Positions 23,073 through 38,895 of a stretch of 64,000 nucleotides of DNA are shown in pieces. Each line of letters begins with the position of its first letter. The stretch's first letter is position 1. A program made the position numbers and the translations under genes. The stretch is from a virus. The DNA is taken from IMG/VR virus record IMGVR_UViG_3300045988_174509; one strand, written 5' to 3'. The notes beneath the pieces are model-generated. The model was not told the origin of the DNA. It saw only the letters and a list, made by a program, of their open reading frames with translations, and did no database searches.

Positions 23073-23164
23073 ATAAGGTATATACAATGCAGGGAGACCT
23101 AAAGCCTCCCTGATGAAAGAAAAGGTATGAGGGCCGGGAAGAATTTCTTCCTGGCTCTCCCTTT

Positions 23165-23641
23165 TTACAGGAATGATCCCTCAGCAAAAAGCTGGTAGGC
23201 CCGGGCATACTTCCCGCCCCACCCAATTTCGATATGGGATTTCCCATATCGGTAGAGCTCTTCCTTCTCCATGCCAGTGAAAAGGATTTTATATTTCAGC
23301 AGGTCATCCCGAAGATAAAGCTTGACAGGCTTCCCATTGGCCGGGGAAATTCCCGGGAGGTGGAAGGAACCAATGGGGCTCCGGGCAATGAGCCTGCGCC
23401 AGAGCTGGCGGTCAATGCCGGATTGAAGAAAATCTTCCTCATGCTCCATGAAAAAAGTGTAAAGGGAAACATGGGTTCCCTCATAGTCCCCGCAATACCT
23501 GGGCTTATAGGAAAAAATTCTTGCATGAATTGATCCGCGTTTGCAGGGAATGCACTGAGCGCGGGCTATGCGATAGACCTGGGAGCGGGAAAGCTTCAGC
23601 CGGGAGGCCGCTTCAGATACCAACACAAATTCTTCCTTCAT
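23165..23641 (-). CDS. HTH DNA-binding protein (Xis/AlpA-like N-terminus)
   Basis: VSEAASRLKLSRSQVYRIARAQ helix-turn-helix motif. The track start is GTG at 23650; the first ATG is at 23641. Confidence 0.4.
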   Translation of the reverse strand: MKEEFVLVSEAASRLKLSRSQVYRIARAQCIPCKRGSIHARIFSYKPRYCGDYEGTHVSLYTFFMEHEEDFLQSGIDRQLWRRLIARSPIGSFHLPGISPANGKPVKLYLRDDLLKYKILFTGMEKEELYRYGKSHIEIGWGGKYARAYQLFAEGSFL

Positions 23642-24237
23642 TTCCAGCACGCGGATTTAATATCAAAGTGGCACTTGACGGAGAGATCACATCCGCATAA
23701 TGTGCAATACAAAACAGGGCGACCTTCAGCCAGACTTCCCCGTTCCTTCACCAGCTCATGCAAAAACTTGCGGGCCGAGCCCCCGGCTCCGCATGATTCG
23801 CATCCCTCCTTCTCCATGTCCGGCGGAGGTACAGGCGTGGACTTGGGGCACCGGGAGCAAATCTCATAGCGGCGGCGGGCTTCGGATATATCTACGAACC
23901 TGTGCCCTCTGCGGTACCAAAGGATCATGGTGAGAAAAAAGCCCAGCACTTTCCTGGCTGTCATCGGCTGGTGCTCCGGCCAGGAGATTCCTTCATCCCC
24001 GCAGGATTCACAGTATCCTTCCGGGAGCTGGAGACACAGGGCCTGATGGAAAGCATCTTCGTCATAGGTCTCATCGTTGTTGCGGAGAATGGAAGCCATT
24101 TGATTCCGCAGTTCCACCAGCGTGGGTGCCGTAATCAAGGTTCCCTGGAGTCTGGGGCTCAGGGCTTCAGGGATTCGGAACTTCCACCCGCCCGGGGGCG
24201 TGACATGCAGATTGGGATGAGCTAAAATTTTAGGCAT
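23638..24237 (-). CDS. Cys-rich zinc-finger protein
   Basis: 199 aa with several CxxC pairs (CESCGDEG, CSRCPK, CESCGAGG, CTLCGC). Confidence 0.45.
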   Translation of the reverse strand: MPKILAHPNLHVTPPGGWKFRIPEALSPRLQGTLITAPTLVELRNQMASILRNNDETYDEDAFHQALCLQLPEGYCESCGDEGISWPEHQPMTARKVLGFFLTMILWYRRGHRFVDISEARRRYEICSRCPKSTPVPPPDMEKEGCESCGAGGSARKFLHELVKERGSLAEGRPVLYCTLCGCDLSVKCHFDIKSACWK

Positions 24238-24292
24238 GCCCTGATGATAGAGGCATGCCTAAAGAAAAGCAAGACGGAAAATGGGAAGCCTT

Positions 24293-24571
24293 CTACTTCA
24301 GATAAAGATCAGCATCCTTTTCCGAGATGGGGTAAGCACAGGCATCATTCAGACCAGCACTTATATCATAGAGACAGGAAGTCAGCTCCTGGTTTTCAGC
24401 GGCAACAATGCCCAGCCTGTATTGTATAAATTCCTTTTTTTTCTGAAGAGTCTTGAACCAGTTGCGCCATGCCTCCAACTCCTTTGCTACTGCATAAGAA
24501 TCAGAAAGCAAGGTATCCAAAGAAGGAGGGGTGTCCTCTAAATTTTTTATGTACTTTTCTAATGTTGACAT
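24293..24571 (-). CDS. hypothetical protein
   Basis: 92-aa ORF with ATG start, overlapping the upstream gene's end by 13 nt. Confidence 0.35.
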   Translation of the reverse strand: MSTLEKYIKNLEDTPPSLDTLLSDSYAVAKELEAWRNWFKTLQKKKEFIQYRLGIVAAENQELTSCLYDISAGLNDACAYPISEKDADLYLK

Positions 24572-25110
24572 GTTTTTGAACGGTAAACTTGAGCCCAGTA
24601 GAACCGGGCTATTTTGTTTTTAATATCCACCACAACAAATTCAGAAAGGGTGAAGGGAGAATTCCATCGGAAGAAAAACCGAAGACATCTTATCGTGTAT
24701 TGGGCCACCTTCAAGGCAACCTGATAGGCTTCCTCCGGGGAACGGAAGTCTTGAATGTATATGGTTCTGTAAAACGTCTGGGACTTTAAGGGAGTCCTAA
24801 CAAGCACATTGAAATTATTATCACTGAATGCTACCAGACTTGACGGGTCTTTAAACTTTTCCCGGTAGGATTCTTCCCGAACCCTCTTGGCATCATCCCC
24901 GAATACATATCTTGTCCTGCTTACAATAAGAGAAGCCTCCTCATAATTAAACTGGCTCTCCAGTTCAGGGTTATGCTTCTTTGGATTCTGAAGCCGGGGG
25001 ATAACTTCCCCCGGCTCTCCTCCATCCAGAGTGCTGACATCATACCGGATGCCCCTCCGTGGCATGCGGAGGCTCCGGTATGAGGGACTAAATCTTTTCT
25101 TCTTGATCAT
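24559..25110 (-). CDS. hypothetical protein
   Basis: 183-aa ORF, ATG start. Confidence 0.4.
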   Translation of the reverse strand: MIKKKRFSPSYRSLRMPRRGIRYDVSTLDGGEPGEVIPRLQNPKKHNPELESQFNYEEASLIVSRTRYVFGDDAKRVREESYREKFKDPSSLVAFSDNNFNVLVRTPLKSQTFYRTIYIQDFRSPEEAYQVALKVAQYTIRCLRFFFRWNSPFTLSEFVVVDIKNKIARFYWAQVYRSKTCQH

Positions 25111-25669
25111 CTATTTTAACAGCCTCAAAAAATTCATAGTCAAGCAGTTCAGATAGAGGAAGGCTCCCACATTCTAAAGGTTCGTCAAATCCATTGATAT
25201 TCTTCCAGTAATAGTGGCCTGAAACTTTTAGAAGTTTAAGAAGCGAAGTAGTTCCAGTCTGGGGGTTTTTTAGTTTGACAAACTTGCCAGACATCATCAA
25301 GTCAATAGCTTTTCCTATTGTGATGGACCTCTCATATTGAATCTCTGCTTTTAAATGGAATCCATTTTTAATAGTTTCAGGAGCCCAGTTAAGAAAGGTT
25401 TGTAATTCTGAAAAATATACTGGGTTTTCCTCTGAATCTTTCATGACGCTGACTATGACCTGTACAAACTGGTTCTTACAGTTGCGTTTTATTTTTCTTA
25501 GCTTCCCATTAAAGAACTGATACAGAAATTGATCCCCAGGCTTATGAGTAAACAGGATTTCCAGACCCTCCTTAAATGAAACAGGGTTGGACAAGTAAAC
25601 TCCAAAATTTTTACATTGAAAATATTCTTTAAGAGAATTCATAAAAATTATAGTTGTTAAATTTCTCAC
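25088..25669 (-). CDS. hypothetical protein
   Basis: 193-aa ORF. The track start is GTG; an in-frame ATG lies at 25642. Confidence 0.35.
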   Translation of the reverse strand: MRNLTTIIFMNSLKEYFQCKNFGVYLSNPVSFKEGLEILFTHKPGDQFLYQFFNGKLRKIKRNCKNQFVQVIVSVMKDSEENPVYFSELQTFLNWAPETIKNGFHLKAEIQYERSITIGKAIDLMMSGKFVKLKNPQTGTTSLLKLLKVSGHYYWKNINGFDEPLECGSLPLSELLDYEFFEAVKIDDQEEKI

Positions 25670-26081
25670 GAGTTGCCATTATATCATAGGAGTCAGTTTC
25701 TATAATGAGTCCTTTCAAGGCATCACAAATTCTAATATCTTTGAACCTATGAGAATAGATTGCCAGCCTCTTCCCTGTCACTAGCTTTTCAACAGCCGCG
25801 TCAAAGGCAAGAGCCTTGGCCAATGGAAGGACAGTATCCAAAACAAATCCTTCTTCCTTTAGTTGAGGATCAAACTTGGCCGGGGCTACCTGAGAATAGA
25901 GAACCGAACCATTAGGGAGTCTTGCACACTTTCTTTCCATGAGGGCCCCTTCATCGTAATCAAAAATGTAGCGGACCGCATAGGAATCTTTTTCCGCGAC
26001 ATGTCGATAAAGGCAATGCACGCCGTTCGGGTTAGTCAGGGCGCAAAGACCCTCTTTAAATGTATAATGTTTAGTGTCCAT
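25629..26081 (-). CDS. hypothetical protein
   Basis: 150-aa ORF, ATG start. Confidence 0.4.
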   Translation of the reverse strand: MDTKHYTFKEGLCALTNPNGVHCLYRHVAEKDSYAVRYIFDYDEGALMERKCARLPNGSVLYSQVAPAKFDPQLKEEGFVLDTVLPLAKALAFDAAVEKLVTGKRLAIYSHRFKDIRICDALKGLIIETDSYDIMATREKFNNYNFYEFS

Positions 26082-26412
26082 CAGGGTTACGGGTTAGGTT
26101 GTCAAAGTATTTTATTCCATCATCAGAAATTATGTAGGCTTTAGGAAAGGTATCAGGAACTAAAAGGACAAGACCAATGCGCCTCAATGAGCTCAGATAC
26201 TTTCCAATGCTTGCCCGGTCAACCAGATTGGCCGCGGCAATTTCTTTTACAGTCACAGCGGCAGGCTGGAGAAGGATAAAGCAAAGCAGTTTCACTTCCT
26301 TGTGCCGGAGTATGCAGTTACGGTCGTAATGGGCAAAGTAATTAAACAGCAGGCGAGCCTTCGGTTTCACCCGCTCCATTAGGTCCTTCTTTTTTCTCTT
26401 CCAGTTTAGCAT
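26071..26412 (-). CDS. winged-helix DNA-binding protein, paralog family 3 of 3
   Basis: The helix pattern LLCFILLQPAAVTVKEIAAANLVDRASIGKYLSSLRRIGLV...DDGIKYF is shared with 859..1182 and 49397..49690. The track start is TTG 26421; the ATG is at 26412. Confidence 0.4.
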   Translation of the reverse strand: MLNWKRKKKDLMERVKPKARLLFNYFAHYDRNCILRHKEVKLLCFILLQPAAVTVKEIAAANLVDRASIGKYLSSLRRIGLVLLVPDTFPKAYIISDDGIKYFDNLTRNPDGH

Positions 26413-26899
26413 ATGTTTCAATAATTTTTTGTTTAGATATGACCCCCTTCATCAGCAGGAGAGGAATGGCGTAATTTGTGCATTCAGTAATGTGCTTCTT
26501 CTTCTCTTCCGGATTCCCGGTCAGCTTGTATAGCTGACATCCGAGGAGCAGAACGATTGCGTTGACGAGGATATTAGGGGGACAGATTAAATCAGTTTTC
26601 CCCCAGTCCTCTTCCAGCACCTTGACAGATTGCTCTACCAAATCACACCCGGCATTCAGGCAGGCATTCAGGAGTCCGTTCACTTCCTCCTCATGGAAGA
26701 CTTCCCCCTCCCCAAAACTGTAGAGAGCCATGGCATTTTTCTTAATGCCCTCTATGTCCTCGGGCCCCTGGATAGGAGGAAGGGAGTTGACCAGGGTGCT
26801 GAGGAGCAGAGCCTGATCATTCACTTTCTTTTTTCTGTCCGCTTCCATTTTTTCACAGGTGTGATCCAACTTCTTCTGGAGTTTTGTTTTCTTTTTCAT
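26342..26899 (-). CDS. hypothetical protein
   Basis: 185-aa ORF, ATG start. Confidence 0.4.
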   Translation of the reverse strand: MKKKTKLQKKLDHTCEKMEADRKKKVNDQALLLSTLVNSLPPIQGPEDIEGIKKNAMALYSFGEGEVFHEEEVNGLLNACLNAGCDLVEQSVKVLEEDWGKTDLICPPNILVNAIVLLLGCQLYKLTGNPEEKKKHITECTNYAIPLLLMKGVISKQKIIETYAKLEEKKEGPNGAGETEGSPAV

Positions 26900-27540
26900 T
26901 TAATAGGTCTTTGAAAATGAGCGCATAGACGTTCCGCCAGGAACATGGGGATTCTAAAAAGAACCTCCACCAAACCTTTGGTAAATTCCTTAACCCTTTC
27001 TTCCTTTCCTTCCTGGTCATTGCCCTCCGTATCAAACAAATTTTCGACATGGCAGGTATTAACAAAACCAACATGGATCAAATAAATTGAAAGAAGAAGA
27101 GTCATCTTTATCACTTTGGGAGGTATTGAACCCTCCCCTCTACTCATGGTCTGATGAAGTTCAATAAGAGACATAAGCTGGGAAATTTTAGGAAGCCTGA
27201 GAATAAACTCAAGCAAATCTATGCTCGCCATGAAAACTTTTTCCCTCATGTAATCAGGTCCGAGAACCTTGACTTCAAGATCGTATTCCTCAAGGATCGA
27301 ATTCAAAGTAGAACACCAGACTTCCTCTATCTTGATCTGGTTTTCTTTGACCCTTAGATCAAAGTCCTTCTCAGTGCAATTCTCTTTTGACTCCCTTAAA
27401 GATTTTATATCTTTGAAAAACTTTCCGAATCCGGAATTAAAATCTTCCATGCTGAAAGCCAGACCTTTACGGAAGACCAGATTAAGCAGATCATCATTGA
27501 TCTCGCCCCATGTAATAGCAGTTTTTTCTGTTGTATTCAT
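26896..27540 (-). CDS. hypothetical protein
   Basis: 214-aa ORF, ATG start. A possible 31-aa upstream ORF (27642..27547) lies between the conserved motif and this gene. Confidence 0.4.
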   Translation of the reverse strand: MNTTEKTAITWGEINDDLLNLVFRKGLAFSMEDFNSGFGKFFKDIKSLRESKENCTEKDFDLRVKENQIKIEEVWCSTLNSILEEYDLEVKVLGPDYMREKVFMASIDLLEFILRLPKISQLMSLIELHQTMSRGEGSIPPKVIKMTLLLSIYLIHVGFVNTCHVENLFDTEGNDQEGKEERVKEFTKGLVEVLFRIPMFLAERLCAHFQRPIK

Positions 27541-27653
27541 ATTGTACTAATGGTTAATAACGTCAAGGAATCCGGGAATCTGGAATTCACGGAACCAGGA
27601 GGTCAAAAACTCCTTGGCTTGCATTAAGGTAAGTAACTTCATGATGATTTATG

Positions 27654-27666
27654 TTGAGGTTCTAAC
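27654..27666 (-). promoter_or_regulatory. conserved leftward motif instance (GTTAGAACCTCAA)
   Basis: Member of the recurring motif with consensus TTTAGAATCTCAAC (minus-strand sense). It lies 11 nt upstream of a possible 31-aa ORF start at 27642. Confidence 0.4.
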
Positions 27667-27679
27667 AAGTTCTAGTGGT

Positions 27680-28252
27680 TTATCGCAAGAAGTAGATAGT
27701 ACATGGGGAACCCGGAATCAGGGAATCAGGGCGCGTCCAGACCTTCAAAGGCTTTAATACCGAATAGGCGGACCGGACATCGTAAAGCATTTGAGAAAGA
27801 TACAGGAGCACCTTTTCAAAACTGCTCACTTGAGCGGCCCCGATTACAACATTGCGGTTCTGGCTTGAGACTTCAATGAAATAACATCCCCGCTCTTCCA
27901 TCTTGTACACGTCCGCTTTGATCACTTCCTTGAGAGGGAGAGCCAGCTCATTCTTCTGGGGCTTCCCCGCCCATCTAAGGCCAAGGATATGGGAGGCATG
28001 CGGACCAAGAACCTTATCAACCTCCTTCTTTATAAGCTTTGACACTGCATCCATCACGATCGTAAGGTCTTCATCCGTGTCAGATGGGGCCGGAGTAATG
28101 AATTGATCTATGGCAAGATAATTGGTAGGGGCCTGAAAGGTGCCGGAGAAATGAATCCTCGCTTCATATCCCGGCAGGTCTTTGGTGATCTTCTTCCATG
28201 CCCCCAAAGCTGCCCGAAGGAATTTCCAATCGGCATCATTAAATTTAATCAT
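27680..28252 (-). CDS. hypothetical protein
   Basis: 190-aa ORF with ATG start, overlapping the upstream gene in ATGATTAA. Confidence 0.45.
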   Translation of the reverse strand: MIKFNDADWKFLRAALGAWKKITKDLPGYEARIHFSGTFQAPTNYLAIDQFITPAPSDTDEDLTIVMDAVSKLIKKEVDKVLGPHASHILGLRWAGKPQKNELALPLKEVIKADVYKMEERGCYFIEVSSQNRNVVIGAAQVSSFEKVLLYLSQMLYDVRSAYSVLKPLKVWTRPDSLIPGSPCTIYFLR

Positions 28253-28643
28253 GATTTTTAATGGCTGTTTTACGTTGAGATTCTAAAGACAGCATTTCTT
28301 TTACAAGTTGCCAGCAAGAAAACAGGTATTGAACTACCCTGTCCATCATCTTGACTGCTGATAAAAGAAGATGGCTTACAGATACATAAACGAAGAACAC
28401 GGCAAGCACATTTAAAAGCAGGGCCATTAGCTTGTCTTCGTTGATCAGGTGATGAATGCTAAACCCAAAAACACTTCCTTCAATGGCGGCTAGAATCCAG
28501 CACCATGATATCCATAATTCAAGAGTCTTGTGAAGGAAATCTCTGAGTTTCCCTGCCTTCAGGTACAGGCCAAGACAAGCGTTCGCCCGTTCGGGCAATG
28601 GAAATCTCAGAAGATACTTGCTCAGAAGTTTATGCGGTTTCAT
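28245..28643 (-). CDS. hypothetical membrane protein
   Basis: 132 aa with 2-3 hydrophobic helices. Its ATG is directly abutted by the conserved TTTAGAATCTCAAC motif. Confidence 0.4.
   Translation of the reverse strand: MKPHKLLSKYLLRFPLPERANACLGLYLKAGKLRDFLHKTLELWISWCWILAAIEGSVFGFSIHHLINEDKLMALLLNVLAVFFVYVSVSHLLLSAVKMMDRVVQYLFSCWQLVKEMLSLESQRKTAIKNHD
28275..28288 (-). promoter_or_regulatory. conserved leftward motif instance (CTTTAGAATCTCAA)
   Basis: Inside the 3' end of 28245..28643, 22 nt upstream of the ATG of 27680..28252. Confidence 0.4.
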
Positions 28644-28905
28644 GTTGAGATTCTAAAGGGGTTAAGCACACGTGGATATGCCGGGCGGTTCCCGGGGCTT
28701 TGAGCTCCAGCTCAAAGCCCCCTGCCAGTAGCTTGCGGTTTGCTTTCCGCAAGTCGGCAAGAAGGAACCTGCTGTTTTCTACCAGGATTTTTCTTCTCCC
28801 ATCAGAAAAAATTTCAATGGCCCCCATGGTGTGATGCGCCTGAAAGAATTCGTTTAGGATTTCTTTCACTTCCTGTTCTGTCAGTTTATTTGAATGGTAA
28901 AGCAT
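28630..28905 (-). CDS. hypothetical protein
   Basis: 91-aa ORF, ATG start. Confidence 0.35.
   Translation of the reverse strand: MLYHSNKLTEQEVKEILNEFFQAHHTMGAIEIFSDGRRKILVENSRFLLADLRKANRKLLAGGFELELKAPGTARHIHVCLTPLESQHETA
28645..28659 (-). promoter_or_regulatory. conserved leftward motif instance (CCTTTAGAATCTCAA-C-ATG)
   Basis: It abuts the ATG of 28245..28643. Confidence 0.45.
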
Positions 28906-29240
28906 GACTCTTTGATCATCTGTAGGGTTGGAATAATTTACAGGGGCTCATAGTGGTCCCTAAAATAGAACCGCCTGCCCTGAAAGAATCATTCAAAAGA
29001 TTATCCATGATCTGCTGGCTCTTGATAAAATTGATATGACTCCTTATCAACTTTTGGGACTCCATTGAAAGGATTCTTGAGCGTAGAATGTGGAAGTTCC
29101 CGGCTTAAATGGGTTTTTGGTATTCATGATTATGATTTCTTTCTATTTAGTATTGGTTAGCGCGGCGATCTTGCCGCATGTCTTCACTGTAGTAAACTGA
29201 TCTGTTTTTACAAGATATTTTTCAAAAAAATTTTCTTACG

Positions 29241-29255
29241 TTGAGCTTCTATAAG
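29241..29255 (-). promoter_or_regulatory. conserved leftward motif instance (CTTATAGAAGCTCAA)
   Basis: It lies 10 nt after the stop of 29266..30252, and begins a ~330 nt stretch containing only very small ORFs. Confidence 0.35.
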
Positions 29256-29265
29256 TTATGCAATT

Positions 29266-30252
29266 CTATTTCATGTAGAATTTGAATTTTGTCTCACCCT
29301 TTTCAGAATCTTCCGTCACTCGGATGCGCTTCAGAAGGAACGGGAAAACTTCGTTGCACTTGGCTTCCACCTTGTCGAGAATTTCCGTTGGAACTTCAGG
29401 CATTTCAGGACTGGGAGATTTCCAGACAAGATAGCCGTAATATTGTGTGAAGGGAACAAAGGAAGCACTTGCTCCAACTTCCTTTCCGAGCTCCTCGAAT
29501 ATTGCATTCACGTCCTGACTAAGCACAGAATAAAATTCCTGCATTTTTTCAAGGGCGTCATCCAAGCAAAGATTCTCTACTTTATGGAACACGTACTGGG
29601 AAAGGTTCCCCTTCTCATTTACCACAAGATTTTTATTCAGGGATCGCCACACACACACCTTATATTTTCCCGGTGCACTGTCTTCCATGTGCTGAACCGT
29701 AAGGAAGAAGGGAGCGGAAGGAATCCTGATTGCCAAGTCACTTTCCAGAATCCGGGAAGCATGAAGCCTTTCAATGGGAATCCGGGGAACAGAAGTCAGG
29801 GGACCAAGGGAGAGAACAATAGAAAGGTTCCGTTTATAATTGTTAAACTTCTCTCTTGGAGAATTTTCTTGGTAGAACTCTTCTATTTTTTCAATCTCTC
29901 CTTCCCGGGAGAAGAACGCAAGCACTCTTTCATGGTCATTTGTTATTTGAGCATGCGCCTTGCGTGTCTCGAGAGTTGGATTGAAACAATGCGATTCAAC
30001 CCATACCGAATATTCTCTTGGCTTTTTTAGCCGGAGAATGAGACGGATAGCTCTTTCATTAGGTTCAAACAAGCCATAGTAGCGAAGTGACAAGGTTTTC
30101 ATTTCTCCTTCCCGCGGATTTTTCCGCTTAAAGGTGACGCGGAACAACTTTCTAGGATTGGCTTCAGGGATTCCATAAGGCTTTACGCCGTTCTTCTCCC
30201 ATTTAACGCTGAAAGAAATATCCATGCCTTCGAGTAATGATTCAGTTTCCAT
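29266..30252 (-). CDS. hypothetical protein
   Basis: 328-aa ORF, ATG start. Confidence 0.45.
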   Translation of the reverse strand: METESLLEGMDISFSVKWEKNGVKPYGIPEANPRKLFRVTFKRKNPREGEMKTLSLRYYGLFEPNERAIRLILRLKKPREYSVWVESHCFNPTLETRKAHAQITNDHERVLAFFSREGEIEKIEEFYQENSPREKFNNYKRNLSIVLSLGPLTSVPRIPIERLHASRILESDLAIRIPSAPFFLTVQHMEDSAPGKYKVCVWRSLNKNLVVNEKGNLSQYVFHKVENLCLDDALEKMQEFYSVLSQDVNAIFEELGKEVGASASFVPFTQYYGYLVWKSPSPEMPEVPTEILDKVEAKCNEVFPFLLKRIRVTEDSEKGETKFKFYMK

Positions 30253-30292
30253 ATTATTTTTAGGTTCTATATATTAGAGGTTCTTTTATTTA

Positions 30293-30742
30293 TTAGCGTT
30301 CTTCTCTTTCAGTTTTGATCTTTATGCTACCTTCGGAAGGAATTTTAGCGATTCTAAACGCAAAATAATAGCCTTTATCCGCATCATGGTAAGAAAAGTA
30401 ATCCTCCAAGCTACTGGTGAAGACCTTTTCCATATTCTCCGTATGTAGCAGGGGGAGAATGCCCTCTCCTATATAAAACTGAAGAGATTGAACGCCTGCC
30501 ATTAAATCCGTTTCAGCTATCACCTGATCTTCAATCACTTTCCCGGTTCGTTCTTCAACAATTTTCCTTAAATTGCATTCAAGAAGATAGCCAAACCATT
30601 CCAAAGGATCAGTAAAATATTCATCCGTAGCCGTTTCATTGGCAAGCTTCAAGCAATAATCTCTTACATGCTCCGATTTGCTTTGCCTTGCCATGTCAAT
30701 CAGCTTCCTAATGGCGGCAAGCCTGTATTCATTTATGTTCAT
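30293..30742 (-). CDS. hypothetical protein
   Basis: 149-aa ORF with ATG start. It is preceded by the conserved leader and a 24-bp perfect palindrome. Confidence 0.4.
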   Translation of the reverse strand: MNINEYRLAAIRKLIDMARQSKSEHVRDYCLKLANETATDEYFTDPLEWFGYLLECNLRKIVEERTGKVIEDQVIAETDLMAGVQSLQFYIGEGILPLLHTENMEKVFTSSLEDYFSYHDADKGYYFAFRIAKIPSEGSIKIKTEREER

Positions 30743-30778
30743 TATATTTAGTCCCTTTCTACTTGTTTTTTGATTCCG

Positions 30779-30802
30779 GCGGGCAGGAAATTTCCTGCCC
30801 GC
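30779..30802. promoter_or_regulatory. 24-bp perfect palindrome GCGGGCAGGAAATTTCCTGCCCGC in 5' region of 30293..30742
   Basis: Seen directly in the sequence. It is flanked (minus sense) by the conserved leader ATCAAAAAACAAGTAGAAAG. Confidence 0.5.
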
Positions 30803-30804
30803 AT

Positions 30805-30819
30805 AGAGATTCTAAAAGG
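30805..30819 (-). promoter_or_regulatory. conserved leftward motif instance (CCTTTTAGAATCTCT)
   Basis: Immediately followed (minus sense) by the 24-bp palindrome 30779-30802, then the conserved leader and the ATG at 30742. Confidence 0.4.
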
Positions 30820-30856
30820 AAATGCGTGAGAAAATGCACTGAACTTAAAAACTCCT

Positions 30857-31036
30857 TCACAAAAGGCGGGCGTTATGCTCTACATACCATTCGGCAGGAT
30901 AAAGGTCCACACCTCCCCTGACTCCCGGATTCTGTGACTCCCGGAATCCCTGAAGCAGGGATACAAACATTTCTGGATCACTCATTTCGTGAGTCAATAC
31001 GGCGGGCGCGGCTTTTTCTTCTATACTAGTGTTCAT
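30857..31036 (-). CDS. hypothetical small protein
   Basis: The track ORF runs to 31081. The internal ATG 31036 reproduces the leader architecture (GTAGAAAG-N12-ATG) seen upstream of 30293..30742. Confidence 0.3.
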   Translation of the reverse strand: MNTSIEEKAAPAVLTHEMSDPEMFVSLLQGFRESQNPGVRGGVDLYPAEWYVEHNARLL

Positions 31037-31073
31037 TTTATGTCTTCTTTCTACTTGTTTTTTGTTTTTTGAT

Positions 31074-31089
31074 CCGCCCATGGGGGCGG
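31074..31089. promoter_or_regulatory. GC hairpin CCGCCC-ATGG-GGGCGG with the same conserved downstream leader
   Basis: Second copy of the hairpin plus (A)TCAAAAAACAAGTAGAAAG module, upstream of ATG 31036. Confidence 0.45.
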
Positions 31090-31160
31090 GGGCATGAATT
31101 TAGATTAGCTTAGTGATTGTATTGTACAATAAAAATAGTAAAGATTTTTGTCATACACGT

Positions 31161-31622
31161 TTACAAGTCATCGAACATGGCGGAAAGGCAGGCGTAATTC
31201 CTTGAGGGATAAAGGCATTCAAACCCTTGCAAGGGGTAGGTGATTTTGATTCCTTTGCAATATATGTTTGCACTGCACGACGGAATGTTCAGCATGCGCA
31301 ACTCCGAAAGAACGGAATTTTTAGCTTGCCTTGCGGCCATTTGCAAGGATGAATCTGAAAAACTGAAAGGGAACTCCCTGATAAATGACGTTTTGTATCC
31401 GGAGTTCTCCAATTCAATGATGATCACCAGCCGGAATTGCGCGCCTTTGGCGTCATGATACTCTAGCGGAAGAAACTCCCGGCAATTTTGTGTCATGTTC
31501 CACACGTCCAATGCTCCTCTATTCATAAGACTTTGAATCACGGAGGAAGGGGAACAGGAAGCAGGGAAAGACTTGGAACGGTGCTTTTCCTTTGTAATGT
31601 ATGCGTATTCAATAAGTTCCAT
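31161..31622 (-). CDS. hypothetical protein
   Basis: The track start is TTG 31643. The ATG at 31622 is directly abutted by the conserved motif. Confidence 0.4.
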   Translation of the reverse strand: MELIEYAYITKEKHRSKSFPASCSPSSVIQSLMNRGALDVWNMTQNCREFLPLEYHDAKGAQFRLVIIIELENSGYKTSFIREFPFSFSDSSLQMAARQAKNSVLSELRMLNIPSCSANIYCKGIKITYPLQGFECLYPSRNYACLSAMFDDL

Positions 31623-31625
31623 ATA

Positions 31626-31640
31626 TTGAGATTCTATAAT
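31626..31640 (-). promoter_or_regulatory. conserved leftward motif instance (ATTATAGAATCTCAA-TAT-ATG)
   Basis: It abuts ATG 31622 of 31161..31622. Confidence 0.45.
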
Positions 31641-32935
31641 CAAGATTGTTTCTTTGTAGACCGCCCCCTTGTATCAAACGCCGGGATATTTAATTTTCTC
31701 CTTGCTTTTCCGATAACTTGTATTGATTTGCCTGTTTTATTAGCGACTTCTTTATCAGTCATTGTGCCCAGCAGGGATTTAATGTATTCGTCCCCTTCTA
31801 TTGTTTCTTGCAAGCTTTTTTCCTCACGTAATGCCGGAACATTCAATTTCTGTCTAATTCTTCTTACTGCCTCGTCATCAATATTAAATTTTTCGGCTAT
31901 TACTCTATCATAAACTTTCCCAAGCATAGATAAGAGTTTTTTACGTTGGTCCGGTGAAAATCTTTCTAAAATGCTTTTACTGAAAGGCTTAATTTTGTTC
32001 TGTTCTCTAAATTTTTTAATTACATATACGCTGTACCCTGTTTTTTTTGCAATTTTTAAATCTGATACTCTTCCCAATAAATTAAGAATTATATCCTTGT
32101 CCGCATCCTTAATGGGAGCTGGAGCAATTTTTAATTTTCTACGGTTCCGCGCTACAACATTAAGCGATATTCCAAGCCTTTCAGCAATTTCGCTATCAGG
32201 AATTTTCCCAAGCATGGATAGCATTTCTTCGCGTTTCTCTTCGGGGATTTTAGTATCAGATAATGATAGAATGCCCATCTTTTTTCTAATAAGCGCAATT
32301 CCTGCCTTGGAATAACCGAATTTTTTAGCAATTTCATCATCCGGGGTCTTTCCAAGCATGTTAATTAACTCTTCGGGATACTCTTTTTTCTTGTGTGGTT
32401 TATTTGGGTCTCGTGGCTGACGGGGTTTACGCGGCCCCCTATATGACTTAATCCCTAATTTCTTTCTAAGGTAGGCTACTCTGGAATTTGAGTATCCAAA
32501 CTTCTTGGCACACTCCGAGTCAGGAATTTTTCCGAGCACTGCAATAAGCTCTTCATCGTGTTGGATGCGGATTGCTTCAGGGCTGCAATACTTTTTGATA
32601 CCTAATTTATAGCGTTCAGTCTGGACCGTGACGCGCGCTATTCCGAGTAGCTCGGCGATTTCCAGGTCAGGTTTTTTGCCCAACATGGACCGCATTTCTT
32701 CACGCTGTTCGTGAGAAAGAATGCGGTGAAACCTCTTTTCTCGGTATTTTTCATGCAATAACTCCATGAGCAATTGCATGTATTCAGGCGTGGGATGTGG
32801 TTTTTTAGTATTTAGCCACTTCCAAACAGCATCTTCCGTCACCCGCATCATCTGCGCGGCCCTTTTTACAGCTTGGGTAGGACTTGGGAGATTGTTGGCC
32901 GTTTGAAGCCAGTCGATAAATTCTTGTGCGGTCAT
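31640..32935 (-). CDS. tandem helix-turn-helix repeat DNA-binding protein (8 sigma-70 region 4/LuxR-like HTH modules)
   Basis: 431 aa. About 8 repeats of ~36-40 aa fit the pattern LxxLGKxPDxEIAxKxGxSxxxVxxxRxKLGI. Confidence 0.55.
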   Translation of the reverse strand: MTAQEFIDWLQTANNLPSPTQAVKRAAQMMRVTEDAVWKWLNTKKPHPTPEYMQLLMELLHEKYREKRFHRILSHEQREEMRSMLGKKPDLEIAELLGIARVTVQTERYKLGIKKYCSPEAIRIQHDEELIAVLGKIPDSECAKKFGYSNSRVAYLRKKLGIKSYRGPRKPRQPRDPNKPHKKKEYPEELINMLGKTPDDEIAKKFGYSKAGIALIRKKMGILSLSDTKIPEEKREEMLSMLGKIPDSEIAERLGISLNVVARNRRKLKIAPAPIKDADKDIILNLLGRVSDLKIAKKTGYSVYVIKKFREQNKIKPFSKSILERFSPDQRKKLLSMLGKVYDRVIAEKFNIDDEAVRRIRQKLNVPALREEKSLQETIEGDEYIKSLLGTMTDKEVANKTGKSIQVIGKARRKLNIPAFDTRGRSTKKQS

Positions 32936-32947
32936 GGTGAGAAAGGA

Positions 32948-32966
32948 GGGGCGGCAATGCCGCCCC
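32948..32966. promoter_or_regulatory. GC-rich 9-bp stem/3-nt loop hairpin between the acidic gene and the multi-HTH gene
   Basis: ggggcggca-atg-ccgcccc, 12 nt upstream of ATG 32935 on the minus strand. Confidence 0.4.
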
Positions 32967-32976
32967 TGGGGGTTAT

Positions 32977-33303
32977 TTAGTGAGCTTCAACGCGGGAAGC
33001 GTCCTGCGTCCAGTTGAGGTTTTCTCCTTCAATTTCTTCGCCCGTCATTTGTTCAAAGACCATGTAGATTTCAACCTTGTTCCCTTCTGCATCATAGCCG
33101 GGAGCAGACCATTCTTCCATATAACTGCCGTCTTCGTATTTGTCCGCATAGGAGCCAGGGAAAACCCTGTTGGTGTATTCCATCTGGCGCGCTGCATAGT
33201 AGGTCTTGCCTTCGAACTTGTAGCTGCCAAATTCACGTTCAAGAGCGGTCAGGTTGATTTCTTCTCCGTCTTCCGTGGTGATGATTTTGTTATCGTTCAT
33301 CAT
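32977..33303 (-). CDS. highly acidic small protein (first gene of leftward block)
   Basis: 108 aa with ~24 Asp/Glu against ~9 Lys/Arg. It is the first ORF after the origin-like region. Confidence 0.4.
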   Translation of the reverse strand: MMNDNKIITTEDGEEINLTALEREFGSYKFEGKTYYAARQMEYTNRVFPGSYADKYEDGSYMEEWSAPGYDAEGNKVEIYMVFEQMTGEEIEGENLNWTQDASRVEAH

Positions 33304-33339
33304 TTTTGTAATTCCTTTCTTTCAGGTTTTATTCTTGGC

Positions 33340-33356
33340 AGGGCGTTGCGCCCTTG
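33340..33356. promoter_or_regulatory. 6-bp stem/3-nt loop hairpin AGGGCG-TTG-CGCCCT upstream of first leftward gene
   Basis: It lies ~40 nt upstream of ATG 33303 and is followed (minus sense) by GAAAGAAAGG-N13-ATG. Confidence 0.35.
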
Positions 33357-34377
33357 CATGATTTTTTGATAGCATTACGGAGGGTTCCGTTCAACCGATT
33401 TTTTGCAGGGAGCCGGCAAGTGATTTAAAATGAAAGGATTATAATTGTGTCATACAAGGTGTAAAAAAGTGTGAAAAGGTGCTTGCAATGTAAAAATCCG
33501 GCATTTGCGGCACAAAAATCCAGCGTCAAAATCAGGCATGGGGGAGTATCGTAAAAAGTACAATAAGCCATGAAGCCGGGAAACCCGGGTTCCGGGTTCC
33601 GGGTTTGGAGGATTAGGCAATAATTGAGGCAGGTGCAAAAGCAGGAATGATTCATAAAATTTTATGGCTGGTGTCCCATATTTGAGCCGGATTCCATAAA
33701 ATTTTATGGAACTTTGGACAGTTTCAGGGTGTCAGGTATAAAATTTTGTAAAAGCAGGGAGAGGCGGGTGCAGGGCGTCAGGGTAACTTAGAATCAGGGA
33801 GTCAGGGGATCAGTTTGGAGGATTAGGCAAGAATTTGAGAAGAAAGGAAGGCCCTTCTTTTCTTCTCATATCATCAACGTATCATGATATGTTGATATGT
33901 TATGATTCACAAGCAAGCCCGCAATTTATACAGGCGTATAAATATGCACCCCTGAACCCCTGATTCCGCCCTTCCCTGCACCCCGCTTCACACGTCAAAA
34001 AATACAATAACCCCCCTATTTCCGGCTATGGAAAAATTCAAACGTAACATAATGGATTGAATCTTAACGTCTAGCACGTTCATACTTCGCATAATATGTG
34101 TAATGCAAAATCGGAAGCACGATTCAGGCATAACAAGAAAATACATAAGAAGTTATGAAGGAAATTACCCTGAAATTGGAAGCCGATTTCCGCCATACGG
34201 GAGGTTTACAGGGCCAGGGGTTCAAGGTTAGAGTGGCTCAAAGGTTCAGGGTTCGAGCAACTCTAACCCGGAATCAGGAAACATACCACCACGGTTGAGG
34301 GGGCTCACGGGTTCAGCGAGTGGAGGTATAAATCTTTGGGTCGGGAATGCCCTGGAGGAACCATTTTTGGAGAAAGG

Positions 34378-34510
34378 GGGATGTATGGACCTAGAAGGCG
34401 GGTTTACCCCCAGTTGGGTACTCTGTACCGGACCTACCCCAAAACACAGTTTTAGGCGACCACCCTACATGAAAAAACCGTATTCTGGCATGAGCATGGT
34501 TCCCAGGCAT
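34378..34510. repeat. ~130-bp direct repeat, copy 1
   Basis: The last ~85 bp are near-identical to 34666-34750. Each copy contains AAAACaCAGTTTT and begins with ATGGACCTAGAAGGCGGGTTTACCC. Confidence 0.6.
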
Positions 34511-34617
34511 GCGTAAAGGGCGGATACCACCACGGGGGAAGGGGTGGAACTTGGGAACCGGAAAGGGCGGGATCAGGGGTTCAGGGGGTCGGAAAAAATC
34601 GGTGAAAACGGAAAAAT

Positions 34618-34750
34618 GGGAGGTATGGACCTAGAAGGCGGGTTTACCCTCTTTCCGCTACAGAGTACTGGACCGACCCCAAAACGCAGTTTTAGGCGAC
34701 CACCCTACATGAAAAAACCGTATTCTGGCATGAGCATGGTTCCCAGGCAT
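34618..34750. repeat. ~130-bp direct repeat, copy 2
   Basis: As copy 1. The middle ~30 bp segment is replaced while the flanks are identical. Confidence 0.6.
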
Positions 34751-34839
34751 CCTCGCGTGCGCATGCGCGTAGGCATGGGCATGGGCTGGCAGGGGTCGGC
34801 ATACATGTCGGAAGAAAGGTCGGAAAAAGGGTCGGCATG

Positions 34840-34930
34840 AGCGGGGCTCGCCTACGCATACGCGTACGTACGCGCACATGGCCCGCGTCACCCGCGCATG
34901 TGTGGGCATGTGCAGGCGTATGCGCTCGCC
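34840..34930. repeat. GC-rich alternating purine/pyrimidine tract (CGCATACGCGTACGTACGCGCACATG...)
   Basis: Seen directly in the sequence: CG/CA/TG dinucleotide alternation with imperfect inverted repeats. It immediately precedes the AT-rich block. Confidence 0.5.
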
Positions 34931-34959
34931 CGCCTCAGCGCGCCCAGGAAACTTTTATA

Positions 34960-35050
34960 ATTCAATATTATAATAAAACCCATATATATATATATAGTAT
35001 TTTTTAACTTTTTTATTTTTAGGGTTCTTGTATTGATTTTTAACGAGTTA
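34960..35050. repeat. AT-rich block with (AT)7 at 34982-34996 (DNA-unwinding-element-like)
   Basis: Seen directly in the sequence. Confidence 0.5.
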
Positions 35051-35152
35051 TGAAGACGGATTTTGTGAAGTGAAAAGTCAGAGCCCCTTTTCACATGCCT
35101 TGACAAAAATGGAAATATGTATGAATTTGGTCTTTTTTATACTTTAGAAATT

Positions 35153-35168
35153 AGAATGATTCTAAAAA
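35153..35168 (-). promoter_or_regulatory. degenerate motif instance (GTTTTTAGAATCATTC) pointing leftward into the origin-like region
   Basis: No convincing downstream ORF. It would direct transcription into the AT-rich/(AT)7 tract. Confidence 0.25.
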
Positions 35169-35187
35169 CTTTTACATACTTTTTTTA

Positions 35188-35324
35188 TCGACATTTTTAC
35201 GACATTTTTACGACGTTTTTTTGACCCCATTTTTGACCCCATTTTTGACCCCATTTTTGACCCCATTTTTGACCCCATTTTTGACCCCATTTTTGACCCC
35301 ATTTTTGACCCCATTTTTGACCCC
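35188..35324. repeat. phased A/T-tract tandem repeats: CGACATTTTTA x3 (11 bp) then TTGACCCCATTT x8.7 (12 bp)
   Basis: Perfect copies counted in sequence from 35221. The antisense 82-aa MGSK-repeat ORF is an artefact of this array. Confidence 0.7.
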
Positions 35325-35388
35325 CTGAATCCGTGATTCCGCCCTCCCGTTCCACCTCCATTTTTGACCCCCTGAATCCGTGATTCCG
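35314..35388. repeat. direct repeat TTTGACCCCCTGAATCCGTGATTCCG x2
   Basis: Two copies ~48 bp apart, just upstream of the primase-helicase start. Confidence 0.5.
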
Positions 35389-35483
35389 GATACCTCCGGA
35401 CCCCCGTCACCGGAAACCCCTTTTTATTTTTCTCTTGACAGGATTTCCGTCCGGATTATCCTGGCTCCACATTAATACATCCC

Positions 35484-38400
35484 ATGACACCCCTATATAT
35501 CGACGACATTCATATCTCTATTGCCGCCCCATCCGCCCCGCAGTGGCTCACTGCCATGGACGTAAACAAAAGGTTCTACCATGTCGGTCATTGCAATAAT
35601 GCCTTTAATGCGGGGCTGAAGGCTATTGCCCTTGGCTGGATGAAATTTGAGGACGCAGAAGGCTTTCCGCTCACTCCCGATTTGCGCAGATGCGGCTATA
35701 TGTGCGACGCCTATGCAATGGACAAGGGCGTGAAACTTCCCGCCCTCCTGCCTGATGCCTATATAGATAGTATTTCCAAATGGCGGGAAATCTCCCCCGA
35801 GGCGGGCATCCCCAAATCCGTGCTCCCAGCCTTCGTGCCGTCAGTCTCCTTCAATTACAAGTTCATTCGCAAATGGCAGAAGGACAACCAGGATGACCGG
35901 AAGAAGTACCTGAGCGCGAAAGCCTTGGCCGGACGCGATCCCCGGGCGTGGAGCCATACGGGCCTGTTCTGCATTGACATTGACGCCGGGCACGACGGAA
36001 ACCCTGAAGCCCCTGACGCCCTGTACGCCCAGGCCCATGCCAATGGCGCCTTCTCCCTGATGCCCGGATTCCTTTTTTCCTTTGCATCCCCGAATCAGGG
36101 AATCAAGCTGATGTTTAAAGTGGACCCGGTTCTGCTCGCGCTTCTCAATACCCCGGAAGGATGCGGAGATGCGGACCTGGAATCCCCGGAAGTATCGGGG
36201 GAAGCCCTCGCCCGGGTGCAGTCTTTGCGCGAGAAGAACCACGCCATATGCTTTTACGCTATCGCCGCGATGGTTTCCCGCCATACCGGGCTTGCCGTGG
36301 ATTTATCCTGCTCCGATCCCTGCCGCCTCCAGTTCATGTTCCGGGCCCATGCCTCCCGGTATGAGCTCAATCCCTGTCTCCTTGATTCCGAAGTCCCGGA
36401 TTCCCTGCTTCCTGGGTTCAGCATCGACGGAGCCGATGCATGGAGGGAGTATGAGGAGACAGCCGCCCGCCGCGGAGCCGGAGGCTCCGCTGTGCAACCC
36501 CGGAATTTTGAGCCCGGAAAAGACAATAAGCCCGACAGTATTTTGAGGTTTGCCGACTGGCTCAAATCCAGGGGGTGGCTGAAGGAAGCCCAGCACGTTT
36601 TGGACATGACTCCCGGACCCCGGGGCTATTATTCGTTCTGCCTCCAGTGCCGGGATGTAAGCAGTACGCCTTCCGGACCTCGTGACTTGCTCCTGTGGCT
36701 TGACAGGGATTCCCCCGGGAGGTTCGGCTTCAAGTGCCTGCATGAATCCTGCCAGAGCCGGGCCAAGGTCAAGTACCCGTTCTGGTATCTGGCAAAGCTC
36801 TACCATGAGGAGCAGGAGGCGTTGAAGATTGCCCATGAGGCATCCAATTCCTATCAGGTGCCTGAGCCCATCCGCAAGTTCATCCGCACCAGAAGCGAGC
36901 TCTCCGAGCACAAGATCATCATTGGGAACATCGGGATGGTCCAGTCCTCCTTCAAGACTCCCGATGCCCTGCCGAACCTGTTCGAGTGGGATGAGAAGAC
37001 CGGAGCCCTGCTTACTACGGCCCTGAATGTGTCGGGCTATGTGCGCCACTGCATGGGATTGTATCCCGTATATAACAAGGACCTGTGCTGTAACGAGTTC
37101 ATTTCTCCGGATACGGGCATGTGCTTCCCGTTTGACGCGGTGCGCAAGGCCGTCCTCGGCTACTTCATGACCCGGTGCAACAAGGACGTGTCCAAGCAGT
37201 TTCTTTTTACCTCCCTGCATGAGGCCCAGGGCCTTTCCTATTCGCCGCTGTTTGCGCTGGGGTACTGGGAGGAGTGGGACGGAGTTCCCCGGGTGGACCA
37301 GTATATCGACCTGCTGGAGTGGGACCCGGCCCACCAGCCGCCTAAAATCTTAAAGGAGGATGGCACGCCCATGTCGGGGCAGGAGTGGAAGCGGCATGCC
37401 CTGCGCTCCTGGCTGGTGAATTGCTGGGAGCGCACCGTCTGCTCGGTGATCGGCTCGGACAAGGTGCCGACCTTCGGTGGCCGCCCCTCGCACCTGATGC
37501 CGGAAAACAAGATGATCATCCTCTGCTCGGAGACCCAGGGGGTGGGCAAGACCCAGTGGGTGAAGGGGCTGGTGGGGAGCAAGGCCCAGGAGTCGCTGGT
37601 CATTGCCGATAAGCTGGAGCAGAGCAAGGACCATGACAAGATTTCGGCCATCAAGCCGATCTTTTTCCTTGACGAGATGGAGAAGACTACGAAGAACGAG
37701 GAGATGAACTCGCATCTCAAGATGGTGCTGACCCGGAGCCACATTGACATTCGTGATCCCTATGAGAAGGACATCATGCACAGGAAGGTGGTGACTTCCT
37801 TCATCGGGGCGACCAACGAGCCAAAGCCTTTGAGTGATGCCGATGGAAGCCGCAGGCTTGTGTTGCTTTATGTGAGGAGGCCCGCCGATAAGATGGGCAG
37901 TGTAGGCAATTGCCCCGAGCATGTGAAGGAGATGCAGTCGCTCAATGTCGCCCAGTTCTGGGCCGAGATCAAGTACCTGTCCGAAACGGCCAAGCCCGGG
38001 GAGTATGCGCTGACGCCCCAGGAGACCAATCTTGTGCATTACAACCAGACCACGGCTTTGGAGAACGGGGAGTTCAACCACCTCGTATCCTACCTCCGCT
38101 TCATTCCCTCAAACTACCCGGCGGCGGACGGGAAACAGCTCCGCAAGATGATCAACGGGGCGTACAACGATCCGGCCAATATCATCAATTCGGTCCGCAG
38201 GTATCTCGGGGAGCGGGAGATCAAGGTCTCCTGGCGCGGGAGCAAGCAGTTCCGCCAGCATCTTCTGGCCCAGGTGCCCGAGGGGTGCTCTCCCACCTAC
38301 TATACAGGCAAGCGCGGGTCTCCCCGTGTCGCCCTGTACCCGGTTATGCTTGAATCCGAGTTCGAGCTTCTGGCCTCCGATACAGCCAGGAAATCCTGGG

Positions 38401-38606: not shown

Positions 38607-38611
38607 TCTCC

Positions 38612-38706: not shown

Positions 38707-38707
38707 G

Positions 38708-38737: not shown

Positions 38738-38742
38738 TCACG

Positions 38743-38889: not shown

Positions 38890-38895
38890 CTTCTC

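Follow-up and report, generated by a model that had tools for sequence, protein, structure and literature searches.

The 64,000-nt window of viral DNA analyzed here (IMG/VR record IMGVR_UViG_3300045988_174509) makes up most of a phage genome of about 66-70 kb, and it contains a short motif that recurs seven times, ahead of seven consecutive small genes, in a block read leftward, on the minus strand, from about 33,300 down to 23,165. On balance, we believe that this motif is a compact promoter with no -35 element, one that would give leaderless, short-leader or hairpin-capped early mRNAs by setting the 5' end of the transcript for individual small accessory genes of the block. Comparison with related genomes indicates that, besides this promoter-like role, the motif serves as a seam for swapping gene cassettes among related phages. 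What appears to be new here is a promoter-type repeat, specific to one phage lineage, that is at the same time a seam for recombination.

Definition and distribution of the motif

The exact core, TAGAANCTCAA, occurs five times in the window, always on the minus strand, and two further copies with one mismatch lie in the same block; all seven are on the minus strand between 27,654 and 31,636. Outside the block, matches with one mismatch number two in the 64-kb window, both on the plus strand, which is the chance level. The degenerate string TWTAGAAYCT was observed five times against an expectation of 0.41, a count of five being reached in none of 100 shuffles. A 17-nt matrix built from the distinct copies, with about 16 bits of information, returned seven sites scoring 19-26 bits, again all on the minus strand (27,653-31,638), while the next-best scores (at most 14.4 bits) were at the background level of the shuffles. 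The matrix was trained on the same copies, and its separation of the seven sites is thus partly circular, whereas the exact-pattern counts are independent of it. Taking the copies in the window together with those in relatives, the extended 17-nt consensus can be written T-W-TAGAA-N-CTCAAY-R-T-A.

The first-pass annotation of this DNA had noticed a recurring minus-strand motif clustered in the leftward block, and that observation is borne out by both pattern counts and matrix: scanned across the genome, the motif has seven copies within 4 kb on one strand, and is not scattered at random in both orientations. The six copies that it listed are all real, although their coordinates were off by 1-3 nt and a seventh, at 30258-30271, had been missed.

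No copy was found in the approximately 4 kb of the genome that the window leaves out. The motif is thereby confined to about 4 kb of the leftward block, every copy in gene sense, with none elsewhere in the genome. The downstream half of the block (27,540-23,165), in which the genes overlap and are tightly packed, contains no copy except for a weak in-frame look-alike at 26,945-26,958. A scan of IMG/VR with TNTAGAAYCTCAACRTA gave about 90 single matches, close to a rough chance estimate; several copies per contig were seen in this lineage only, the matches in contig L042 belonging to a repetitive coding region. A literature search for the motif retrieved only polymerase chain reaction primers. 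Rfam covariance models gave three sub-threshold chance matches and nothing else across positions 23,000-36,000, and no shared RNA secondary structure was found around the copies.

The seven copies and their predicted transcript starts

All of the copies, which are on the minus strand, lie either between a stop codon and the next start codon or, in the case of copies E and F, in the final 15-40 nt of the upstream open reading frame (ORF), and their position tracks the downstream gene. Copy A (31625..31638, TATAGAATCTCAAT, 25.1 bits, predicted +1 at 31624) is 1 nt past the stop codon of the 431-aa gene and 2 nt ahead of the ATG at 31622 of the 153-aa gene. Copy B (30803..30816, TTTAGAATCTCTAT, 19.3 bits, predicted +1 at 30802) is a hairpin-type variant: a stem-loop, GCGGGCAGGAAATTTCCTGCCCGC (30779..30802, minus strand, -21.4 kcal/mol, z = -2.8), begins at the first base past it and is followed by AAUCAAAAAACAAG-UAGAAAG-N12-AUG, with the ATG at 30742. 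Copy C (30258..30271, TATAGAACCTAAAA, 20.6 bits, predicted +1 at 30257) is 5 nt ahead of the ATG of the 328-aa gene (30252). Copy D (29240..29253, TATAGAAGCTCAAC, 24.2 bits, predicted +1 at 29239) lies 12 nt past the stop codon of that gene and is followed by a leader of about 112 nt, with TAGAAAG at 29139-29145, and then by an ATG at 29127. Copy E (28644..28657, TTTAGAATCTCAAC, 25.1 bits, predicted +1 at 28643), inside the last codons of the 91-aa ORF, directly adjoins the ATG at 28643 of a 132-aa membrane-like protein. Copy F (28274..28287, TTTAGAATCTCAAC, 25.7 bits, predicted +1 at 28273) is within the 3' end of the 132-aa ORF and 21 nt ahead of the ATG of the 190-aa gene (28252). Copy G (27653..27666, GTTAGAACCTCAAC, 22.9 bits, predicted +1 at 27652) is 10 nt ahead of the ATG of a 31-aa ORF (27642), where the related genomes L001, L118, L119 and L121 have genes of 199 to 204 aa.

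The gap between the end of the 14-mer and the ATG is 0 nt in copy E, measures 2, 5, 10 and 21 nt in copies A, C, G and F, and grows to about 60 nt in copy B and about 112 nt in copy D. These figures correct the earlier ones, which had placed the copies not abutting an ATG 11-40 nt upstream of starts or just after a stop; only one copy had been assigned to the 3' end of an upstream coding region, where there are actually two (28644 and 28274).

In both long-leader copies, B and D, a further element, TAGAAAG, stands 17-19 nt ahead of the ATG. No Shine-Dalgarno sequence was found before any gene of the genome. TAGAAAG may serve in ribosome binding by pairing with the far 3' end of the 16S rRNA, which we take to be CUUUCU. 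On the minus strand it is present at 29139-29145, 30755-30761 and 31047-31053, with five more sites in L003, and it also precedes an ATG in an unrelated Akkermansia prophage (L013, at about 9620). Behind copy D, the stretch 29126-28906 (minus strand) has only ORFs of 26 and 49 aa ahead of the 91-aa gene; because relatives carry genes of 213 to 231 aa at the equivalent place, this stretch may be a decayed gene.

The 431-aa gene (31640-32935) is in the same 90% cluster as WP_418379105.1 from Akkermansia sp., and since it clusters with an Akkermansia prophage protein, the host of this phage is very probably Akkermansia. Cappable-seq of A. muciniphila has revealed -35 and -10 boxes, a Y(-1)R(+1) rule and a leaderless fraction of about 10% among the start sites (PMC4782308). 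With a single exception, the canonical copies of the motif have A or G directly past the 12-nt core, with C or T ahead of that base and T and A behind it, so that the pyrimidine at -1 and the purine at +1 match the rule for that organism (PMC4782308). The base after the core in copy E is the A of the ATG itself. In the hairpin-type copies the second half of the motif reads CTCTAT, CCCTAT, CTCTAG, CTTCAG or CTCCAT, and five unrelated stems of -20 to -25 kcal/mol (in the window, L001, L121 and twice in L119) start between -2 and +3 relative to the predicted start. The stem is thus replaced wholesale while its offset is kept, as would be expected if transcripts opened with the stem-loop. Directly behind the core comes a purine, an ATG or one of five unrelated strong hairpins, which argues for an RNA 5' end at that base. 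When TAGAAN is numbered -12 to -7 the purine falls at +1, and this spacing of -12/-7 to +1 is that of bacterial RNA polymerase and of the phage TTGACA promoters located 5-6 nt before an ATG.

We propose an element reaching from about -14 to +3, of the form T(-14) W TAGAA(-12 to -8) N(-7) C(-6) T C A A(-2) Y(-1) R(+1) T A, with transcription predicted to start at the purine directly past the 12-nt core. Copy E would then give a truly leaderless mRNA, with the first base of its start codon as +1; leaders of 2-21 nt would result from copies A, C, F and G; and copies B and D would give long leaders with TAGAAAG at its 17-19 nt distance from the ATG, the copy B transcript opening with a strong stem-loop. 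The sequences directly show how many copies there are, their strand, placement and conservation, the junctions, and the constant offset of ATG or hairpin; we infer from them that transcripts have their primary start here, when they are made, and that a dedicated factor exists. The leftward block is probably an early block, its early or middle timing being purely deduced.

Recognition of the motif

A shared -35 hexamer (TTGACA-like, 16-18 nt upstream) was not found at any spacing in the upstream 30 nt of the distinct copies, and the best likeness consists of four of six matches at a spacing of N18 in copies A and G only. A TG extension at -15/-14 is also absent as a shared feature, TG being present only in copy G and in copy B of L001, with -14 mostly T; upstream of -14 the copies share nothing. 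TAGAA does supply T(-12) and A(-11), resembling the start of a -10 hexamer. The -7 base, however, is free: C, A, T and G are all found at the orthologous copy C across genomes, and G or T at copy H. All ten of the full sigma70-type promoters that we identified have T at -7 (hexamers TAGGAT, TATGTT, TAGGTT, TATAGT, TATCCT, TAAGCT, TAGGCT, TACCTT, TAATCT and TATAAT), and several of the phage's sigma70-type promoters start with TAG in their -10. As sigma70-type promoters keep T at -7, the missing -35 together with the unconstrained -7 suggests that the plain host sigma-A holoenzyme would hardly be sufficient, and recognition by the unmodified holoenzyme appears unlikely.

The first-pass annotation had suggested a separate regulatory class for the leftward block. 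There is indeed a distinct cis-element here, confined to the block, in gene sense, at gene starts, without a -35 and with a free -7, but the block cannot be regarded as governed by the motif throughout, as it also has sigma70-type promoters at 33465-33438 and 31129-31102.

The specificity factor that such an element would call for could be a phage ORFan, a virion-carried protein or an alternative factor of the host. A phage RNA polymerase or other phage-specific factor had been suggested previously, and neither a phage RNA polymerase nor a sigma factor was found in the genome by Pfam, PHROGs, or searches for DxDGD and motif B. More precisely, Pfam and PHROGs searches of the submitted ORFs, all ORFs of at least 323 aa included, gave no RNA polymerase or sigma factor; the D-x-D-[GA]-D / D-[FY]-D-x-D motif of two-barrel polymerases was absent from the six frames of the window; and motif B of T7/N4 polymerases (R-x3-K-x6-8-[YF]G) matched only PolA and three non-candidate ORFs, namely a small protein and two frames not called as genes. 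The only homologues found for the ORFans are in close relatives within this lineage, and PHROGs and PADLOC searches of the block proteins gave no informative match. The genes first transcribed from the strong leftward promoter vary among genomes and therefore cannot encode a conserved factor.

Two individual proteins were considered and set aside. A 3,407-aa ORF might have been an N4-like virion RNA polymerase, but it lacks polymerase motifs, and Pfam, PHROG, PDB and tblastn searches gave no match. The 431-aa protein, with its multiple helix-turn-helix (HTH) repeats, might have been the motif binder, but L001 and L003 retain the motif without having its gene, and the pair that it forms with a 108-aa gene is also found in unrelated Akkermansia prophages without the motif. 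Two other roles for the motif were rejected as well. If it were a substitute for the -35, comparable to a MotA box, with a -10 about 12 nt downstream, TAnnnT should recur at a consistent distance, which it does not, and the start would fall inside those ORFs whose ATG adjoins the motif. A role like that of a Shine-Dalgarno sequence does not fit a spacing to the ATG that ranges from 12 to more than 100 nt.

It is conceivable, although we rather doubt it, that the motif is the promoter of an unrecognized specificity system, whether a sigma-like protein, a polymerase-retargeting protein or an unrecognizable polymerase, either encoded by one of the ORFans or brought in with the 3,407-aa virion protein.

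Comparison across the lineage

Fourteen lineage genomes were compared (window, L001-L003, L019-L027, L118-L122), the relatives coming from human gut metagenomes. The 190-aa protein neighboring the motif is 75-100% identical across the lineage genomes, and the primase of L003 only 62%. Each fetched stretch has four to eight motif copies, always in gene sense, including genomes in which neighboring proteins are 75-85% identical. Around copy D, the intergenic sequences of the window and of L003 agree at a nearly random level, except for TATAGAA-N-CTCAAC-R-TAA, which is the longest identical run.

Several junctions between genomes coincide with the motif. At copy A, three genomes have unrelated upstream flanks, with different upstream genes, and are identical from the first motif base onward; BLAST alignments of L001 and L002 with the window begin at 31,640 or 31,638, the 5' edge of this copy. 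The 132-aa gene is missing in L002, L020 and L025, the ends of the deletion being copies E and F, and the single copy that remains in these genomes fuses the upstream flank of E to the downstream flank of F. Genes inserted in relatives at 27,555-27,559 carry their own motif before the second gene (L002 3779, L003 1079). In our reading, these direct-orientation repeats of 14-17 nt also provide the short homology for adding, removing and swapping cassettes consisting of motif plus gene. Not all breakpoints are at motifs, as seen for example at 27555-27559, 30191/29432 and 28466.

The 153-aa gene, preceded by the motif in the window, has in L003 an orthologue preceded instead by TTGCAC-N16-TAATCT, a hairpin, an A-run and TAGAAAG, and thus the two kinds of 5' module look interchangeable. 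This TTGCAC/TTGTAC-type sigma70 module is also present ahead of other genes in the window, L001 and L002.

Sigma70-type promoters and the origin-like region

The plus-strand modules have T-rich-TTGACA-N16-18-TAnnnT promoters, as the first-pass annotation had correctly stated for its TTGACA type. At 1160-1197, 4633-4669, 39576-39615 and 49073-49112 (plus strand) there are full TTGACA-N16-17-TAnnnT promoters with an ATG 5-9 nt past the -10 hexamer. Expression from leaderless or near-leaderless transcripts seems to be usual for this phage, and these promoters with an ATG 5-9 nt past the -10 agree with the published A. muciniphila Cappable-seq data (PMC4782308). Three strong tandem TTGACA promoters (38579, 38708 and 38896) lie within 350 nt at 38579-38925 (plus strand), ahead of very small ORFs.

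The leftward block is headed by a near-consensus sigma70 promoter at 33438..33465 (minus strand; TTTACA-N16-TATAAT, 11 of 12 matches), which is conserved in L001 and L003. A second sigma70-type module, at 31102..31129 (minus strand), has TTGTAC-N16-TAATCT followed by a hairpin, an A-run, TAGAAAG at 31047-31053 and an ATG at 31036. The string TGTATGACA(C/A)AA stands in or near the spacer of leftward sigma70-type promoters (33445-33455 and about 31140-31150 on the minus strand, and about 4945 in L003) and may be an operator.

Between 33,300 and 35,480 there is a 2.2-kb non-coding stretch in which a 12-nt unit is repeated 8.9 times, alongside an AT-rich stretch and further repeats. What had been called a degenerate copy of the motif at 35153-35168 is in fact a perfect 15-bp palindrome at 35151-35165, TTAGAATCATTCTAA (TTAGAAT-C-ATTCTAA), which shares only TTAGAAT with the motif and reads on both strands. 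The palindrome is about 20 nt downstream of a rightward promoter-like TTGACA-N17-TATGAA (35100-35128, plus strand); it is conserved in L001, and in L003 the central base alone differs. Past it, at 35218-35324, are the 8.9 copies of the 12-nt unit, TTTTTGACCCCA, with the AT-rich stretch close by, and the palindrome looks like an operator beside a replication origin. The non-coding region also has two 138-nt direct repeats (34373-34510 and 34613-34750, 89% identical and 240 nt apart) and several inverted repeats of 28-35 nt built from GGGGTTCAGGGG and GGAATC-type units (33949-33983, 34553-34595 and 35311-35388). Both sorts of repeat could be origin elements or small RNAs.

Alternative explanations

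Several points weigh against the compact promoter that we favor. The whole case is one of sequence anatomy. With -7 free and neither a -35 nor a TG extension, the motif fails the definition of a sigma-A promoter, and no alternative polymerase or sigma factor is recognized in the genome. One copy (L020 9192) has C at +1, and the hairpin-type copies diverge in the second half (CTCTAT and similar). The fixed offsets would fit a precise RNA cleavage site equally well. Finally, all of the genomes belong to one lineage, and the similarity of the copies may in part reflect recent spread by recombination rather than selection.

The cleavage just mentioned would be performed by an endoribonuclease, of phage or host, that cuts polycistronic RNA from the 33465 promoter just after ...CUCAAY, yielding a leaderless AUG, short leaders or hairpin-protected 5' ends alike. 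Such a site accounts for the fixed offset to ATG or hairpin as well as a start site does. A strong upstream promoter exists, convincing terminators are missing within the block, and strand specificity is what one would expect of an RNA signal. RNase E prefers U at +2, a preference that the U(+2) of the canonical copies resembles; the hairpin-type copies, however, have no U there. The nuclease would moreover have to read about 12 nt of unstructured RNA, and we know of none that reads 12-14 nt of linear RNA, while the copies have neither a shared fold nor an Rfam family. Cuts at copies E and F would also fall 13 and 28 nt before the upstream stop codons, producing non-stop mRNAs. We regard RNA processing as unlikely, and action at the RNA level, which the first-pass annotation had allowed for, as less likely than a promoter. 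Another RNA-level possibility is a translational operator like that of T4 RegA, in which an RNA-binding regulator would read the motif in the initiation region of early mRNAs. Five of the seven copies end 0-21 nt before a start codon, and the genes lack Shine-Dalgarno sequences, but copies B and D are about 60 and about 112 nt upstream, with TAGAAAG occupying the ribosome-binding position, the spacing to the ATG is not fixed, and hairpins that start exactly past the core would be left unexplained; we consider this explanation very improbable.

A phage DNA-binding protein might instead use the copies as operators, or stoperator-like sites, to shut off or pace transcription of the accessory block. 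Candidates would be a MarR/TrmB-like 116-aa protein, for which the PHROGs/PADLOC screen gave a weak match to a transcriptional-regulator family (E = 0.006), and an HTH_17 161-aa protein; both are conserved in the lineage, and the block encodes conserved winged-HTH and HTH proteins. The same protein would bind the TTAGAAT-C-ATTCTAA palindrome by the origin, and the TTAGAAT heptamer is indeed common to the motif and to this conserved palindrome beside the iterons. Asymmetric, transcription-oriented sites of 13-14 bp are the hallmark of stoperators in Cluster A mycobacteriophages. An operator needs no fixed offset from ATG or hairpin, however, and such an offset is seen in five hairpin-type copies and copy E; half of the copies have ATAGAA rather than TTAGAA; the sites lie within 4 kb instead of genome-wide; neither an integrase nor an immunity repressor was found in the window or the missing 4 kb or so; and L001 and L003 retain the motif without having the multi-HTH 431-aa protein. 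As the sole explanation we find operators improbable, but they could coexist with a promoter role, in which case conservation across -6 to +3 would be explained. A further alternative, in our opinion a slim chance, is a pure cassette-boundary repeat with no role in expression, like an integron attC site or the end of a mobile element. The one-gene deletion exactly between two copies and the mosaic junctions at motif edges would suit it, and the plus-strand GTTGAGA agrees at six of seven positions with the integron core site, GTTRRRY. On the other hand, no integrase or site-specific recombinase was found in the genome, paired inverted boxes and an attC-like fold are missing, many breakpoints are elsewhere, and short-homology recombination between any repeated promoters accounts for the junctions.

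Genome organization and accessory genes

Genes at 1-23,072 are on the plus strand and include the 3,407-aa ORF. Beyond the leftward block and the non-coding region, from 35,484 on, there are genes for a primase-helicase, PolA, a helicase, a PD-(D/E)XK nuclease, the large terminase and structural proteins. No similar genome was found among cultured phages. No integrase, repressor, sigma factor or RNA polymerase was recognized in the window or in the missing 4 kb or so, and the phage is probably virulent.

The 3,407-aa ORF (12277-22500, plus strand) is rich in Ala, Glu and Leu, has no cysteine and has an HExxH at residue 1606. It has no Pfam, PHROG, PDB, tblastn or cultured-phage match, and it is probably a giant virion or ejection protein.

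The 108-aa gene and the gene for the 431-aa protein, which has about eight HTH repeats and a weak match to a homing-endonuclease model (E = 0.0011), form a two-gene unit at 31640-33303 (minus strand), also present in L013-L018. This pair sits inside unrelated temperate prophages on contigs of 550-626 kb; at 90% identity or more, the unit is found in unrelated Akkermansia prophages with either a LexA-like repressor and RecT or a Mu-like character, and it is missing from some close relatives of the phage. It looks like a mobile accessory cassette. In L003 a different insertion, an IS605-family TnpB/OrfB gene (16594-17790), is found between the helicase and nuclease genes; the closest genomic match of this TnpB is 38% identical and comes from a metagenome-assembled genome of the Bacillota. 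Searching 185,579 species genomes with a primase profile and with this TnpB gave nothing useful.

Comparison with known systems and significance

The closest likeness that we see for the motif as it would work in the phage is to the repeated early-promoter (and stem-loop) units of T4-type phages. Arbiol and colleagues reportedly described, in 2010, PeSL cassettes of T4-type phages as units of early promoter and stem-loop in hyperplastic regions. There too a short repeated promoter-type unit, sometimes with an adjacent stem-loop, precedes small ORFs in a hypervariable early region, and recombination between repeats deletes or swaps genes, as do the E-F deletion and the copy A junctions here. 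The early promoters of T4, however, are of the sigma70 kind and have -35, -10 and extended elements, whereas the motif has no -35 and a free -7; where it has a stem-loop, in a subset of copies only, this lies past the start and would cap the 5' end of the transcript.

Independence from the -35, with a single compact element near the start and, presumably, reuse of the host core RNA polymerase, recalls the late promoters of T4 (TATAAATA; gp55/gp33/gp45) and the middle and late extended -10 promoters of Thermus phage P23-45 (gp39/gp76). Their sequences are unrelated to the motif, no gp55-like sigma or appropriator is recognizable here, the motif is conserved through the discriminator to +3, and the genes that it precedes look early or accessory rather than late. 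Promoters of the single-subunit polymerases of T7, T3, SP6 and Syn5 are, like the motif, asymmetric, phage-specific, extended past +1, begun with a purine and repeated in one orientation, but the motif is shorter (about 16 bits) and no gene for a T7- or N4-like polymerase was found by Pfam or motif B. The N4-type early promoter, read by a virion RNA polymerase, has a hairpin of 5-7 bp with a 3-nt loop upstream of +1, while the hairpins here are downstream, variable and limited to a subset of copies. The two-barrel, multisubunit-like polymerases of the YonO, crAss gp66 and phiKZ kind have a catalytic DxDGD-type loop, which no frame of the window contains. Cluster A stoperators (the sites of L5 gp71) are also asymmetric sites of 13-14 bp, located in short gaps between genes, oriented with transcription and often touching start or stop codons; they are spread genome-wide in temperate phages and bound by the immunity repressor, in contrast to a motif confined to 4 kb. 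Integron attC sites differ in that the motif has no shared hairpin fold of paired core sites, and no tyrosine recombinase was found.

From our literature searches and general knowledge, no regulatory elements of Akkermansia phages have been described. Akkermansia, a gut bacterium relevant to health, has few genetic tools. Should the motif be a promoter read by something other than the plain sigma-A holoenzyme, it would point to an as yet unrecognized redirection of host transcription, and its copies would be compact phage-inducible expression signals. If the less probable idea of an unrecognized specificity system turned out to be true, the motif would represent a new promoter class, independent of both -35 and -7, in phages of PVC (Planctomycetes, Verrucomicrobia and Chlamydiae) bacteria, and an orthogonal expression part for Akkermansia might be possible. 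The seven predicted starts are exact to the base, which makes the hypothesis directly testable. More generally, repeated promoters that act as seams for cassette exchange in an uncultured gut phage would help in reading the mosaicism of metagenomic phage genomes.

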